Source: Candidatus Latescibacterota bacterium
GTDB lineage: Bacteria > Latescibacterota > UBA2968 > SICM01
Assembly (NCBI GenBank): GCA_009694805.1
Contig: SICM01000004.1
Location: 635 to 64,634, forward strand
DNA: 64,000 nt
Reading direction: 5' to 3'
Shown: positions 3,816 to 48,935 of the stretch, one piece after another
Position numbering within the stretch: the stretch's first letter is position 1
Layout of the letters: every line of letters starts with the position of its first letter
The notes under the pieces: model-generated
Seen by the model: only the letters and a program-made list of their open reading frames with translations
What the model was told of the DNA's origin: nothing
Database searches by the model: none
Translations under genes and position numbers: made by a program

Positions 3816-3874
3816 GGGAGACCCCACCCCCGGCCCGCCACCCACCCTGTCGCTCCCGTGGGTCGCGACCCCTG

Positions 3875-4113
3875 CCCTCCTACAAGAGGGGAGGGGGGAA
3901 GTGCAATAAACCAGTGCGACGTACAGATCAAAAGCAGGCGCGCCGCCAGAAACCCCCACCACCGGAGTTCAGCAGAAGCAACCCACACGCCGGGGGCACA
4001 TCATGGCGTGCGACAACTGAATGTTAAGGTTGCGGCGCGCCAAAGCCCCCCGCGGCGCATGAGCGGGCGTGCTTCTTTGGCCCCACCTTTCTTGCACGAG
4101 CAAGAAAGGTGGG
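3875..4113 (+). repeat. composite structured element, copy A (core 3936-4113)
   Basis: CCCTCC-TACAAGA-GGGGAGGG hairpin, GTACAGATCAAAAGC, GGCGCGCCGC...GCGGCGCGCC closing stem, loop-GGCGCATGA hairpin, terminal CCACCTTTCTTGC-ACGA-GCAAGAAAGGTGG hairpin. Confidence 0.85.
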
Positions 4114-4134
4114 AATGCCGCTAAGAGAATCGTC

Positions 4135-20657: not shown

Positions 20658-21377
20658 TTAATGTTTCTGTTTTCTCCCTCGATATAATTGCGCGCGCGGA
20701 CTCGGGTCGAACGACGCGGGCACGAAGTTCGACACCGCCTCCGAGTAGCGCACCGCGCTCAGGGCGATCACCCCTCCGTCCTCGAACTGCACGAGAGGTG
20801 GCCCCTCCGCCGGCAGCAGGTGCGCCCGCCCCTTCTTCAGATAGTCCAGAATCTGCTCCCGGTGCGGGGACGGCGGCAGCCACGCGGCCAGCCGCTCCTC
20901 CATCCCCGCCGCCTCCGCCTCTCTCCCCTCCCGGTCCCACCCCCGGCCCCCCTCGACCTCCCGGTAGAGCCGCCCCACCTCCATGGCCACCTCCTTGGAG
21001 CGGCGGAGCAACTGCTCCATCTCCCCGGCCACGCTTCGCACCTCCTCGGCCTGTTCCGACAGCCCCGCGACCTCCTCCGCGCTCAGGGCACGCCCCTCCG
21101 TGAAGCGTCGCATCATCGCCCCGGCGAACTGGATCCCATCCGATCTGCGGGAATCGCCGATCATCTGCATCCGCTCCACCAGCCCGGCGGCCTCGTCCCT
21201 GAACCGCTGAAACTCCCCCAGCCTCAGTTCCATCCGCTCCAGCATGTGGATGCAGTCCTGCACGAACCCCACCAGAACCTCCGGCGTCCTGGCCTCCGGC
21301 CCCTCGTTCAGCATCCGCTTCAACTCATCCACGGTCCCGCACACATCGCTGAATCGCGTCTCTCTCAACCCTGCCAT
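20658..21377 (-). CDS. hypothetical protein (helical / coiled-coil-like N-terminal two-thirds)
   Basis: ATG 21377 lies 4 nt after the stop of the upstream epimerase gene. The ORF-track extension to 21686 overlaps that gene. No family recognised. Confidence 0.55.
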   Translation of the reverse strand: MAGLRETRFSDVCGTVDELKRMLNEGPEARTPEVLVGFVQDCIHMLERMELRLGEFQRFRDEAAGLVERMQMIGDSRRSDGIQFAGAMMRRFTEGRALSAEEVAGLSEQAEEVRSVAGEMEQLLRRSKEVAMEVGRLYREVEGGRGWDREGREAEAAGMEERLAAWLPPSPHREQILDYLKKGRAHLLPAEGPPLVQFEDGGVIALSAVRYSEAVSNFVPASFDPSPRAQLYRGRKQKH

Positions 21378-22226: not shown

Positions 22227-22320
22227 GACCTCACCCCCCGGCCTCCTCTCCCTCCTTCGACTACGCGGCTAACGCCGCTCCGCTCAGGATGCGGGAGAGG
22301 GGGAGAAGCACCCCACCCCC
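22227..22320 (+). repeat. GACCTCACCCC / CCTCTCCC...GGGAGAGG element with long loop
   Basis: The loop tccttcgactacgcggctaacgccgctccgctcaggatgc is homologous (in inverted orientation) to 48823-48935. Confidence 0.85.
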
Positions 22321-22322
22321 TT

Positions 22323-22580
22323 CCCCTCCCCTACAAGAGGGGAGGGGAGAGATAGTGTACAGATCAAAAGCAGGCGCGCCGTCCCGGCTTTCAAGCAGGA
22401 GGTTCGTTCAGGCACGGTGGGGTACGAGCGCCGAAGGCGCGGGGGTACGGCGGAAGGGGCTCGGTCTACCACGGGACCGCGATTACGCAACCCGAACAGA
22501 GTACGGCGCGCCCAGCCCCTCCGGCGCTTGAGGAGCGTGCTTCTTTTGCCCACTTTTCTTGCACGAGCAAGAAAAGTGGG
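22323..22580 (+). repeat. composite structured element, copy B (core 22372-22580, alternative interior)
   Basis: Same 5' and 3' modules as copy A, but the closing stem is GGCGCGCCGT...ACGGCGCGCC and it encloses an unrelated ~120-nt interior. Confidence 0.85.
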
Positions 22581-22605
22581 CAAGCCGTTCAGGGACACGG
22601 TTATC

Positions 22606-23445
22606 CTACCGGTTCAGCATCCGATTCAGCGTCTCCCCCAGAATCAGCTTCTTATCCCCCTCCGGAATGAACGCGCAGTGCGTCCGAAACGCCTCCAGCG
22701 CGTGCTGGTAGGTCATGGTGAACCGGACGACCGGATAGTCCGACCCCCAGCAGAGACGATGCGGCCCGTAATGCTCATACAGCGCCCGGACGATCCACCC
22801 CGTGTCCGAGAAGGGGTAATCCCACCTCACCTGCGAGACATAAGCGAACCCCGACATCTTGATGCAGACATTCTCCTGCCGCGCCGAGGCCAGGACCTCC
22901 TTCAGCATCGGGTGCGGGTACGCCTCCGACGCCTTCGCCCCGGCCATGTGGTGGCACAGGAACGGGACGGACGGAAACCGTCCGGCCAGCTCCCGCACCA
23001 CCGGCTGCAGCCGGGGACCGATCGCCAGGCTGGCGATCAGCTTCAGCTCCTCGGCCTTCCGGAAGAACGCCAGCCCCTCCTCTGACAGAAACCAGGCCCC
23101 GTCGTCCTCCCCCCGCACATAGTGCGTGAACCCCTTGATCGGCCAGCGCCGGGCCGTCTCCGCCAGCCGGCCGGCGGCCCCCGGGGTGTGATAGGTCGAA
23201 GACCAGGAACAGTCCACGTCCGCGAACTGGTGGAGGCGCGTCGGGTGCTTCGCCACGCACCCCGCGACATAGGCGTTGTTGTCCGGGTTGTGGTCGATCT
23301 GCGCGCAGACCAGCACGGCCTGGTCCACCCCGTGAAGGTCCATCTCGTGGAGCAACTGCTCGACCCGGCCCCGGCTCTCCCCGTCCGGCACGGGCGGCTG
23401 ATACGGCCAGCGCTCCCAGGCGTGGGTATGCGAGTCTATGATCAT
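22606..23445 (-). CDS. amidohydrolase_2 family (TIM-barrel metal-dependent hydrolase)
   Basis: MIIDSHTHAW metal-binding motif at ATG 23445 with AAGGAG SD. Confidence 0.85.
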   Translation of the reverse strand: MIIDSHTHAWERWPYQPPVPDGESRGRVEQLLHEMDLHGVDQAVLVCAQIDHNPDNNAYVAGCVAKHPTRLHQFADVDCSWSSTYHTPGAAGRLAETARRWPIKGFTHYVRGEDDGAWFLSEEGLAFFRKAEELKLIASLAIGPRLQPVVRELAGRFPSVPFLCHHMAGAKASEAYPHPMLKEVLASARQENVCIKMSGFAYVSQVRWDYPFSDTGWIVRALYEHYGPHRLCWGSDYPVVRFTMTYQHALEAFRTHCAFIPEGDKKLILGETLNRMLNR

Positions 23446-30429: not shown

Positions 30430-30828
30430 TTACAGGGACTTTATCAGAGATCGAATATCCGCCAGAAACGCCTCGCATGCCTCAATCTTTTCTCGCACAT
30501 ATTCGGCATCAAATTCGGCAAATTCAACATAATCGCCCTCCTGTCGATCCCGGAAGAGCTGATTATACAGATCGCCGTGCTTCCGGCCGAGACGCCCGGT
30601 CTTGATGATCTCCCTGTTGAAAGCCGCTCGAACGCCGCTGTGCTTTTTAAACCGGCGACTCTCTTCAATCAGCAAAGCGCTGACAGCATAGAACAGGGCA
30701 TAGTAAGCTCGATTGATAGCAAAACCAAAGGCGTCTGCAGCCAGTTCTCGGCGGGCAGCGTTCAGGCTCTCAAAAGCTTTATCCCACCAGTAGCGAACAG
30801 CCTCCTCCTTCGAATTTCTCTCACTCAC
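30430..30828 (-). CDS. HEPN domain protein (HepT-like toxin of a HEPN/MNT pair)
   Basis: 132 aa. Matches HEPN (COG2250-like) by size, pairing with the MNT partner and overall resemblance. The Rx4-6H motif was not located. AT-richer region. Confidence 0.8.
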   Translation of the reverse strand: MSERNSKEEAVRYWWDKAFESLNAARRELAADAFGFAINRAYYALFYAVSALLIEESRRFKKHSGVRAAFNREIIKTGRLGRKHGDLYNQLFRDRQEGDYVEFAEFDAEYVREKIEACEAFLADIRSLIKSL

Positions 30829-31169
30829 AACCGGACCCCTTCTTCCTCAACCTCCTGGTGGATCGGTAACACAGAACCCAGCCCATGATCCCAGGTTTCA
30901 CGATCTACAATCAATTCACTGAGGTTCGTATCATATTCCAGGTTGATATCCAAGATCAAGCGTGTGATGCGGTCGCGTGTGCGATGATCCGGACGCTTGG
31001 TGAGGACGACAAGGAGATCCGCATCAGATTCTTCATCCAGTTCTCCCCGGGCTGCGGAACCAAAGACGACCATTCGATCCACGTCGAATTCTACCATGAT
31101 CCGATCTCTCGCCGCCTGAAGCGCATCACGAAGCATTTGGCTGAGTTGCAGATTTTGCACGGTTTTCAT
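30825..31169 (-). CDS. MNT-type nucleotidyltransferase (MntA-like antitoxin)
   Basis: VVFGSAARGELDEESDADLLVV GSx10DxD nucleotidyltransferase motif. ATG 31169. 4-nt overlaps on both sides. Confidence 0.85.
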   Translation of the reverse strand: MKTVQNLQLSQMLRDALQAARDRIMVEFDVDRMVVFGSAARGELDEESDADLLVVLTKRPDHRTRDRITRLILDINLEYDTNLSELIVDRETWDHGLGSVLPIHQEVEEEGVRL

Positions 31170-31777
31170 GGCATATCGCTCCTTTTCCGCATCTCCACCA
31201 GCCACTCCCTGCCCAGCCGGTTCTCGAACGAATCTTCCGGCCGGGTACAGCTTATGATCTCGAAATGCCCTGAAAAATGCCTCCGCACGTCCTCGTCCGT
31301 CGTCCGGAACGGCGGCCCGTCCTCCTTCTCCGTCTCGTAGAACAGCCCGATGATCCGTCCGCCGCCCGCGAGGACCCTCGCGATCACCTCCGCGTAGGCG
31401 TCCCGCATCTCCAGCGGGATGGCGCAGAAGCACGTATGCTCGACCACCAGGTCGAAACACCCGGCCATGTCCTTGTCTATTGAAAAGAGGTCGCGCTCCA
31501 GGGCACGGATCGGCAGCCCCTCTGCCCGCGCCTTCAGATAGGCCACCGCCGAGGGCGCGAAGTCCACCGCCGTCACCTCGAACCCCTCCTGCGCCAGGAA
31601 CAGCGCCTCGTGCCCGCGGCCGCACCCCGGCGTCAGGACGCGCGTCCCCTTCGGGAGCCCGGCCCCCCGAACCGCCCGCACGAGCGGGGGCGCGGCCTCC
31701 CCCTTGTCCCACGGCGGAGAGTCGCTCTCCTCATAGACCGCCTGCCAGTAGGCGGCGTCCCTAGGCGTCGCTTCCAT
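31166..31777 (-). CDS. class I SAM-dependent methyltransferase (thiopurine-S-methyltransferase-like)
   Basis: VLTPGCGRGHEALFLA SAM-binding motif I. ATG 31777 with AAGGAGG SD. Confidence 0.8.
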   Translation of the reverse strand: MEATPRDAAYWQAVYEESDSPPWDKGEAAPPLVRAVRGAGLPKGTRVLTPGCGRGHEALFLAQEGFEVTAVDFAPSAVAYLKARAEGLPIRALERDLFSIDKDMAGCFDLVVEHTCFCAIPLEMRDAYAEVIARVLAGGGRIIGLFYETEKEDGPPFRTTDEDVRRHFSGHFEIISCTRPEDSFENRLGREWLVEMRKRSDMP

Positions 31778-36567: not shown

Positions 36568-36650
36568 CCTCACCCCCCGGCCCCCTCTCCCACGGGAGAG
36601 GGGGAGAAGAGCACCCCTCCCCCGACCCCTCCTCGACACGGAGAGGGGAG
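36566..36650 (+). repeat. GACCTCACCCC / CCCTCTCCC-ACG-GGAGAGGG hairpin element
   Basis: Starts within the stop codon of the thioredoxin-TPR gene and lies immediately 5' of composite element copy C. Confidence 0.8.
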
Positions 36651-36696
36651 CAAAAGAAATCAGAAGTAAAACAAGCAAGACGTACAGGGCAAAAGA

Positions 36697-36873
36697 AGGC
36701 GCGCCGCCAGAAACCCCCACCACCAGAGCTCAGCAGAAACAACGAACCCGCCGGGGGCACAAATTTCGGTGCGTCCACAAAACGTTGAGGTTGCGGCGCG
36801 CCCAAGCCCCTCCGGCGTCTGAGGAGCGTGCTTCTTTTGTCCAACTTTTCTTGCACGAGCAAGAAAAGTTGGA
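36697..36873 (+). repeat. composite structured element, copy C
   Basis: Aligns with copies A and D throughout. Terminal hairpin is TCCAACTTTTCTTGC-ACGA-GCAAGAAAAGTTGGA with compensated changes. Confidence 0.85.
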
Positions 36874-36930
36874 AAGTGGCCGGGGAGCGGTTGGGCGGTT
36901 GGGCTTTTATTTAACCAGAGGAGGACGCTC

Positions 36931-41889: not shown

Positions 41890-41902
41890 CATAGACTCAG
41901 GA

Positions 41903-42076
41903 AGGCGCGCCGCCAGAAACCCCCACTACCGGAGCATAGCAGAAGCAACCCACTCTCCGGGGGCACATCATGACGTGCGACAACTGAACGTCAAGGTTGC
42001 GGCGCGCCAAGCCTCCCTGGCGCTTGAAGGGCGTGCTTCTTTTGCCCACTTTTCTTGCACGAGCAAGAAAAGTGGG
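41903..42076 (+). repeat. composite structured element, copy D
   Basis: Aligns with copies A and C. Terminal hairpin is CCCACTTTTCTTGC-ACGA-GCAAGAAAAGTGGG. Confidence 0.85.
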
Positions 42077-42123
42077 AATGCGGGACGGGTTGGTGGGGGA
42101 TCTATAAAGTAAAGCGAGGATTC

Positions 42124-48822: not shown

Positions 48823-48935
48823 GCCCTCACCCCGTCAGGCTATGCCTGCCACCCCTCTCCCTGCCTGCCCTGAGCGGAGCGGCGCTTTCGCGCCGCGCAG
48901 TCGAAGGGTGGGAGAGGGGCCGAGGGTGAGGGCCG
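48823..48935 (-). repeat. GCCCTCACCC ... GGGTGAGGGC nested hairpin element, long-loop variant
   Basis: Outer 10-bp stem and inner CCCCTCTCCC/GGGAGAGGGG stem. The reverse complement of the loop aligns with 22250-22300. Confidence 0.85.

Follow-up and report, generated by a model that had tools for sequence, protein, structure and literature searches.

The 64,000-nucleotide (nt) stretch of Candidatus Latescibacterota contig SICM01000004.1 analysed here, called the window in what follows, contains four copies (A, B, C and D) of an element of about 200 nt, all on the + strand. One of them, copy B, is a real second structural subtype of this dispersed, structured RNA-like repeat. It keeps the outer modules of the other copies and carries a different interior inside a closing stem that is changed in both arms, exactly as a sequence-only reading of the window had described. 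The closing stem behaves as an RNA helix around a variable peripheral domain, and the interior folds as a domain of its own and is not passenger sequence. We consider it fairly probable that the element represents a dispersed, strand-specific, modular family of structured RNAs, in which a swappable domain (P2) is combined with a triplex-pseudoknot module at the 3′ end, the copies recombine, and the product is a stable non-coding RNA (ncRNA).

Copy B and the interior types of the repeat

GGCGCGCCGC and GCGGCGCGCC are the stem arms shared by copies A, C and D, whose 85-nt interiors can be aligned with one another (z = 17–26 over shuffles). In copy B, the arms GGCGCGCCGT and ACGGCGCGCC are complementary at 10 of 10 positions and enclose 120 nt, which compare with the interiors of A, C or D at chance level (z = −1.1 to 0.5). 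A profile of the type-1 element, the type of A, C and D, reaches copy B only from position 22498 on, and the type-2 profile reaches A, C and D only from the 3′ arm on, while its nhmmer match to B itself spans 22358–22584 (E = 3e-66). The leader and 5′ arm of B are identical to those of A at 25 of 26 positions, and its 3′ part agrees with those of A, C and D at 72–76 of 82. Profile searches with nhmmer found no further copies in the window beyond these four, the density being about one element per 16 kb.

Relatives were found by scanning species-representative genomes for an invariant 20-mer of the 3′ hairpin, and further loci may exist beyond the matches listed; among the latter, a metagenome-assembled genome labelled Gemmatimonas bears the same element family. 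In addition, a search pattern that was fixed to the 3′ arm and 3′ module and neutral to the interior returned 90 metagenome stretches, which together with the genome loci and the window amount to 33 distinct true elements. Within the window alone, B is the sole copy of its kind, and its interior could be thought a unique local insertion or deletion product with a coincidental T-A closing pair. We virtually discount this explanation: at least 13 further type-2 elements were found in other genomes and metagenomes, an orthologous locus included, and 35 of 36 related elements have C-G or T-A as the closing pair, the exception being an element with an insertion, which was misparsed. The B interior thus recurs elsewhere, in many metagenome copies and in the related locus L038, which is 86.6% identical to copy B over 209 nt (22373–22580), interior and T-A closing pair included. 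Both states of the closing pair occur within each type (14 C-G and 3 T-A in type 1; 12 T-A and 1 C-G in type 2), so that its covariation is real and not a single coincidence.

Altogether, the interiors fall into at least five discrete types (1 to 5) and a subtype 1b, all enclosed by the same GGCGCGCC stem. Type 1 is the interior of A, C and D, with one type-1 element carrying an insertion, and subtype 1b has a T-A closing pair. Type 2 accounts for at least 10 further copies among the 33 distinct elements and type 3 for four, and a single sample (Ga0156186) contains types 1, 1b, 2 and 3 together. Eight aligned type-2 copies were used to assess the fold of this interior. The hairpin GCGCC-GAA-GGCGC, which the sequence-only reading had noticed, is 100% paired and its extension covaries (AU, UA and CG). 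A second helix proposed there, GTCCCG...CGGGAC, is 78% paired, uncompensated and overlaps the closing stem; it was dropped, as another long-range helix (22383–22392 with 22452–22464), 97–100% paired with several G-U pairs, fits better.

Interior types are not tied to particular flanks. Six P3 alleles and four leader classes are common to types 1 and 2 among the Gemmatimonas-type elements, which by the four-gamete argument indicates recombination between the interior and both flanks. The leader class of A and B, for example, occurs in other genomes beside interiors of both types, and the P3 hairpin of the element varies from CCCGC/GCGGG in A and CCCT/AGGG in D to CTCGC/GCGAG in relatives. Flank alleles tend to be shared within one genome, the identical leaders of A and B being a case in point, and this fits gene conversion homogenising the flanks while non-homologous interiors persist.

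The 3′ module and its predicted fold

On our reading, the element would be built from a loose leader, the P2 domain closed by GGCGCGCCGY/RCGGCGCGCC, a covarying hairpin P3 and a highly conserved 3′ module (Table 1). The module follows the motif GGCGUG(C/U)-UUCUUU(U)-G-[4–6 nt]-CUUU(U)CUU-GCACG-AGC-AAGAAA(A)G-[complement of the 4–6 nt]. Its statistics were scripted over 64 distinct cores, with the shuffles given the same register freedom; a MAFFT alignment of the 64 cores was out of register at minor alleles and was not used for the statistics.

The five bases just 5′ of the pyrimidine tract (S1a) are paired with bases 1–5 of the 8-nt apex of hairpin P4 (S1b). This S1 helix pairs in 60 of the 64 distinct cores, whereas 5000 shuffles gave 41.6 on average and 48 at most, and cores with a minor S1b allele are compensated in 16 of 17 cases. 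There are nine S1b alleles, each with a complementary S1a. Commonly, S1 is CGUGC/GCACG or CGUGU/GCACG, the latter with a U.G pair; eight further combinations are CGUCC/GGACG (compensated, in L192), CGCCC/GGGCG (compensated, in L200), UCGCC/GGCGA, UGCCC/GGGCA, CGCAC/GUGCG, CGCAU/GUGCG, UGCAU/GUGCA and CGUGC/GCAUG. The loop L3 that follows S1b is AGC or AAC.

The pyrimidine tract itself (Y1) complements the purine strand of P4 (R) in parallel orientation (A to U, G to C), and not in antiparallel orientation. This rule holds over the full length in 61 of the 64 cores (shuffle mean 25.8, maximum 40) and across nine alleles, which are, given as R with Y1, AAGAAA with UUCUUU, AAGAAAA with UUCUUUU, AAAGAAA with UUUCUUU, AAAGAAAA with UUUCUUUU, AAAAGAAA with UUUUCUUU, GAAAGAAA with CUUUCUUU, AAAGAGAA with UUUCUCUU, AAGAGAAA with UUCUCUUU and, in Clostridia, AAGAAAGAAAA with UUCUUUCUUUU. 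No Watson–Crick partner of the tract was found at a consistent position, and for 76 of 90 elements from beyond the Gemmatimonas-like group none at all lies between −420 and +200 nt. A pairing of Y1 with the leader (P1) was considered and rejected, because it is not enriched over shuffled leaders in the Gemmatimonas-type elements.

The lower stem of P4 comprises 187 Watson–Crick, 56 G-U and no A-C pairs over the 64 cores. G-U pairs occur on the + strand only, and there are many in the type-2 interior too. Because G-U pairs are frequent and A-C pairs absent, it is the + strand that folds as a single strand, and RNA is the natural reading.

The strands are ordered S1a, Y1, S2a, S1b, AGC, S2b, which is the order of a classical H-type pseudoknot, and covariation shows the 3′ module to have the pairing pattern of this fold. 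In H-type pseudoknots, the first loop (L1) lies in the major groove of stem S2, parallel to the 3′ strand of S2, and one or two nucleotides are enough to span a stem such as the lower part of P4. Here, the single G after Y1 would span the remaining 5–6 bp of that stem. Accordingly placed, Y1 appears to form a triple helix with P4, with six to eight predicted U.A-U/C+.G-C triples, and 11 in one clostridial variant; the predicted triples of the window type are a run of U.A-U with one C+.G-C.

Among known structures, the H-type triplex pseudoknots of telomerase RNA and of the SAM-II, SAM-V and preQ1-II riboswitches have the same order (S1a, pyrimidine L1, S2a, S1b, L3, S2b), and in them, as here, L1 is parallel and Hoogsteen-complementary to the purine strand of S2. 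Whereas they have two or three consecutive canonical triples, the number predicted here is larger, and unlike them the present module is multi-copy and is not located in a 5′ untranslated region (UTR). Published counts per structure are two to three triples in bacterial riboswitch aptamers, three in telomerase RNA and about 10 in MALAT1 (PMC7583470). The long U.A-U run with a single C+.G-C interruption also resembles the element for nuclear expression (ENE) of MALAT1 and PAN RNA, as would a position at the 3′ end of an ncRNA; the role of the ENE class is protection from 3′–5′ decay. The ENE differs in that its U-rich internal loop clamps an A-rich 3′ tail, whereas in the present module the purine strand is supplied by the 3′ side of a hairpin that takes part in a pseudoknot, and ENEs are eukaryotic or viral, whereas this module is bacterial.

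Table 1. Copies of the element in the window and parts of copy B, with upstream hairpin P0.
Feature	Position	Strand	Remark
Copy A	3921–4118	+	Type 1; interior 3947–4031
Copy B	22357–22584	+	Type 2
Copy C	36682–36876	+	Type 1
Copy D	41893–42081	+	Type 1; without canonical leader
P0, upstream poly-C/poly-G hairpin, CCCCTCCCC-TACAAGA-GGGGAGGGG	22323–22347	+	Inverted repeat; similar hairpins before most related elements
5′ leader, GTACAGATCAAAAGC(A)	22357–22372	+	Same in copy A
P2 closing stem, 5′ arm GGCGCGCCGT	22373–22382	+	Partner 22503–22512
P2 interior, type 2, 120 nt	22383–22502	+	Separately folded domain; fold conserved in 8 aligned type-2 copies
Apical hairpin GCGCC-GAA-GGCGC	22428–22440	+	Inside interior; 100% paired; extension covaries
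P2 closing stem, 3′ arm ACGGCGCGCC	22503–22512	+	Partner 22373–22382
P3 hairpin CTCC/GGAG, loop GGCGCTTGA	22516–22535	+	Covaries among copies
Pseudoknot strand S1a, CGUGC	22536–22540	+	Partner 22561–22565
Pyrimidine tract Y1, UUCUUUU	22541–22547	+	Predicted Hoogsteen third strand; parallel complement of 22569–22575
P4 hairpin	22548–22581	+	17-nt perfect inverted repeat
P4 lower stem	22548–22553 / 22576–22581	+	Covaries across phyla
P4 upper stem, UUUUCUU / AAGAAAA	22554–22560 / 22569–22575	+	
P4 apex GCACG-AGC	22561–22568	+	S1b (22561–22565) and 3-nt loop L3

Exchange between loci and competing explanations

The history of individual loci was compared between the window and related contigs. 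At locus B, a relative whose flanking amidohydrolase is 87% identical has a type-2 element in the same place and orientation. In this orthologue (L187, 4880–5150, − strand), there is an extra internal hairpin insertion, and the P4 apex is decayed. Type 2 having been retained at locus B in the relative, copy B must be old and its type stable. At locus C, by contrast, four relatives (L192, L196, L199 and L200) have a type-2 element between the thioredoxin-TPR gene and thuA, where the window and a 98.9%-identical sister assembly have type 1. The L192 and L196 contigs are 85–87% identical to the DNA of the window, and the best match of the L192 element is window copy B (85%). At locus D, the same relatives have a spacer of 94 nt and the element is absent. 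L122, which had been considered as syntenic with locus A, was rejected, as it has only a distant paralogous context. The metagenome contigs L188, L189 and L199 end inside the element, a typical assembly break at a high-copy repeat.

These comparisons bear on the sequence-only reading that the segment bounded by the AscI-like palindromic stem is exchangeable. The discrete types, their reassortment and the type switch uphold the exchange; the palindrome as a recombination site is not upheld, and no recombinase was found near the loci compared. Cassette-like behaviour is therefore partly right: it describes the evolution of the element and is not supported as its mechanism. In a site-specific cassette system, the AscI-like arms would be recombination sites comparable to attC and the stem-bounded segment would be exchanged as a unit. 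The interior does reassort against both flanks, the arms are conserved in sequence beyond what pairing alone would need, and blastn homology between the window and L192 at locus C resumes exactly at the 3′ arm (36794). The left breakpoint of this comparison, however, lies not at the 5′ arm but upstream of the leader, past the first of the upstream hairpins, and differences extend to the leader, to the stem of P3 and to the P4 lower stem. This difference in the flanking modules suggests replacement of the whole element or a long gene-conversion tract. Moreover, the closing pair covaries as expected of an RNA helix and remains associated with the interior type, the interiors are RNA-like structured domains without open reading frames (ORFs) of their own, relatives beyond this lineage lack the GGCGCGCC arms and yet have the same modularity, and no recombinase gene was found beside any window copy or recurrently near about 94 loci. 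The likeness to attC sites and gene cassettes, a variable segment between conserved self-complementary sequence, is thus accompanied by differences: there is no adjacent integrase, no ORF in the segment and no attC-type core site, and the arms pair across the segment as an RNA helix. We regard a site-specific cassette system as very improbable. What exchange there is resembles recombination between dispersed copies or turnover of whole elements, and not a site-specific swapping of cassettes at the palindrome.

The main rival to the ncRNA reading is a mobile element, which we consider rather unlikely. According to this explanation, the repeats are non-autonomous elements similar to miniature inverted-repeat transposable elements (MITEs) or short interspersed nuclear elements (SINEs), whose whole types insert independently into intergenic hot spots; the 3′ module would be the handle for a transposase or reverse transcriptase acting in trans, and the interior the body of a subfamily. 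It would account for the high copy number, the presence/absence polymorphism at locus D, the difference of the whole element at locus C, the near-identical core distributed across phyla and the contigs of relatives that break inside the element, and a TwoAYGGAY preprint likewise argues for mobile-element-like expansion. Yet the repeat scan of 22300–22650 found no terminal inverted repeats, no inverted repeat joining the element ends as in MITEs and no flanking direct repeats or target duplications. No transposase, reverse transcriptase or integrase recurs near the approximately 94 loci or the window copies; indeed, no recurrent neighbour protein family at all was found within ±3.5 kb of 94 loci, where nothing came up except syntenic Stenotrophomonas genes and spurious ORFs that overlie the repeat. 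Plasmids and phages hardly contain the family: in the collections of both, copy B has no match and the betaproteobacterial version matches only two megaplasmids. The gammaproteobacterial version has no match in E. coli. Lastly, type 2 was kept at locus B across species divergence, and the empty site at locus D lacks clean insertion boundaries. Gain or loss at locus D, the whole-element difference at locus C and the lack of an enzyme and of terminal repeats discriminate only imperfectly between this rival and the ncRNA reading.

Dispersed bacterial repeats such as REP/BIME, ERIC, pneumococcal BOX and the Neisseria Correia elements are intergenic, multi-copy and hairpin-forming, with subtypes that differ in modules and copies that recombine. 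The present family resembles them in being intergenic, multi-copy, subtyped and recombining; it differs in its cross-phylum pseudoknot/triplex core, its strand-specific structure and its lack of terminal inverted repeats. In particular, REP/REPIN sequences are palindromes of 20–40 nt mobilised by the RAYT transposase, whereas this element is complex and about 200 nt long. A separate family of poly-C/poly-G hairpins was observed in the window at 3823–3901, 22230–22347, 36569–36655 and, on the − strand, at about 20913–20949 and 48849–48930. These hairpins (for example CCCCTCCCC-loop-GGGGAGGGG and CCCCCTCTCCC-ACG-GGAGAGGGGG, often after CTCACCCCCCGGCC) lie just 5′ of A, B and C, occur alone as well, and may be a REP-like family.

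A cis-regulatory RNA is an improbable explanation, though slightly less so than the cassette system. Here, the element would be a riboswitch, attenuator or terminator, with P3 and the U-rich tract as an intrinsic terminator, or the triplex pseudoknot would be a ligand aptamer like those of the SAM-II or preQ1-II riboswitches. P3 followed by CUUCUUUUG did score as terminator-like on the + strand in copies B (22524–22548) and A (4057–4082), the bacterial triple-helix pseudoknots known so far are riboswitch aptamers (PMC7583470), and all four window copies lie downstream of + strand genes. A and B, however, are located between convergent genes, and the genes that flank the four copies are functionally unrelated (a ROK regulator, amidohydrolases, a thioredoxin-TPR protein, ThuA, a glycosyltransferase and an epimerase). 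Heuristic gene calls revealed no orientation bias relative to flanking genes over about 120 elements, the upstream gene being on the + strand in 14 and the − strand in 10 cases and the downstream gene in 18 and 10 cases for the Gemmatimonas-type elements. In view of the absent bias, a 3′-UTR or 5′-UTR element was rejected, and a consistent, riboswitch-like position and orientation before a coherent set of genes was not found among the Gemmatimonas-type elements. There are also many copies per genome. Were transcription to stop at P3 and the tract, no triplex hairpin would be made. The syntenic block also contains, between copies B and C and past D, two toxin–antitoxin-like gene pairs, a HEPN and nucleotidyltransferase pair (window about 30430–31171, − strand, with an equivalent at L194 3492–4231) and a PIN/DUF433 pair (L194 19458–19987).

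In the modular ncRNA family that we favour, the many copies would undergo ectopic homologous recombination or gene conversion, by which the conserved flanks are homogenised and reshuffled, while the non-homologous P2 domains would persist as discrete types that are occasionally replaced at a locus. The + strand would be transcribed into a stable ncRNA, with the triplex pseudoknot as a protective and/or recognition cap at its 3′ end and P2 as a variable effector (binding) domain.

Several points weigh against this account. No promoter was found for the element, and + strand transcription is an assumption; the effector role of P2 is a best guess without direct support, and GGA motifs are not conserved in the Gemmatimonas-type interiors. 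The triplex is predicted solely from sequence covariation, its rule is broken by one base in three of the 64 cores, and much of the covariation may stem from a small set of module alleles that recombination has spread, so that independent events would be fewer than sequences. In L108, L160 and L164, a 42-nt insertion (CACCCCGCCTGTTGCTGCGCTCGCTCGCAACCCGCCCCGCTGA) replaces ACGA at the P4 apex, by which the predicted pseudoknot strand S1b would be lost, and in the locus B orthologue L187 the apex GCACGAGC is lost and CTTTTCTT-CTAA-AGAAAAG stands instead. Such apex insertions or decayed apices in relatives indicate that individual copies are not all strongly constrained. Finally, the whole-element difference at locus C does not separate independent insertion from gene conversion.

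The wider family and its relation to TwoAYGGAY RNAs

Among the matches listed, the 3′ module occurs many times per genome in Stenotrophomonas, Comamonadaceae, Rhodocyclales, Thiofaba, Oscillospiraceae, other Clostridia and Gemmatimonas-like bacteria, joined to quite different 5′ domains in the proteobacterial, clostridial and Gemmatimonas-like genomes. The family has no Rfam entry according to scans of the window and L038: across the whole window there is no match at the gathering threshold, and at E ≤ 10 copy B and the type-2 copy of L038 gave only chance hairpin matches, with none to TwoAYGGAY (RF01731). The RF01731 model does match three gammaproteobacterial loci (L010, L016 and L071), directly 5′ of the same 3′ module, and it has no match in the other lineages tested. 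In these three loci, the RF01731 match is followed by GGCGUGUUCUUUG and then by the hairpin CUUU(U)CUUGCACGAGCAAGAAA(A)G, and the window copies contain the same 20-mer that directly follows the RF01731 matches. The features of extended TwoAYGGAY RNAs are present: a first hairpin is followed by GCGUGY, next by a pyrimidine tract and last by the hairpin CUUUCUUGCACGAGCAAGAAAG, with a pseudoknot. As RF01731 matches only gammaproteobacterial loci among the lineages tested, the unifying feature is the 3′ module; the domain upstream of it varies between lineages and, in this lineage, also between copies. In Thiofaba (L016, 1717–2270), two elements are arranged tail to tail, their matching arms 347 nt apart, and each contains a TwoAYGGAY match, the 3′ hairpin region of the second copy being different and possibly degenerate; the arrangement recalls the doublets reported in the TwoAYGGAY preprint.

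The superfamily is partly described already, for Pseudomonadota, in a 2026 preprint (bioRxiv 10.64898/2026.09.22.753630). In their “Minerva-extended” form, TwoAYGGAY RNAs of Pseudomonadota are reported to have a lengthened basal stem, additional hairpins and a pseudoknot at the 3′ end, with 11–200 copies per genome, structural variants and mobile-element-like expansion; a role as Csr/Rsm sponge via GGA motifs is also proposed (bioRxiv 10.64898/2026.09.22.753630). We rejected Csr/Rsm-type GGA loops as the role of the interior in this lineage, since GGA positions vary among type-1 and type-2 copies. The window elements share with TwoAYGGAY RNAs the 3′ module that stands behind the TwoAYGGAY domain in L010, L016 and L071, but they have no AYGGAY hairpins, and their 5′ domain is of other types and closed by the GGCGCGCC stem. 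The preprint places the extension in Pseudomonadota and mentions neither a triple helix nor Gemmatimonas-like genomes. A literature search for the core sequence found no paper. As far as the literature searched shows, the Gemmatimonas-type branch, the interior types, the type switch at one locus and the reading of the core as a triple helix are new.

Tentatively, and as a possibility that we hold to be less than even, a bacterial triplex of unprecedented length (6–11 triples) might be a universal 3′ cap or handle for exchangeable effector domains. It would form a plug-and-play chassis across Proteobacteria, Clostridia and Gemmatimonas-like bacteria, with the A- and B-type interiors as two payloads, and effector domains would be exchanged on the 3′ handle by recombination or via an RNA intermediate.

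If the favoured reading is true, a widespread class of multi-copy, modular bacterial RNAs is seen here at close range, and its core would be the longest natural major-groove triple helix in bacterial RNA, extending to bacteria a structural idea like that of MALAT1, the ENE and telomerase RNA. It would also provide a testable handle on the function of TwoAYGGAY-type RNAs, an open question since 2010, with regard to their stability, a possible partner protein and their mobility. Finally, because a type has switched at one orthologous locus and an element has been gained or lost at another, the evolutionary dynamics of the family can be measured directly in related genomes.

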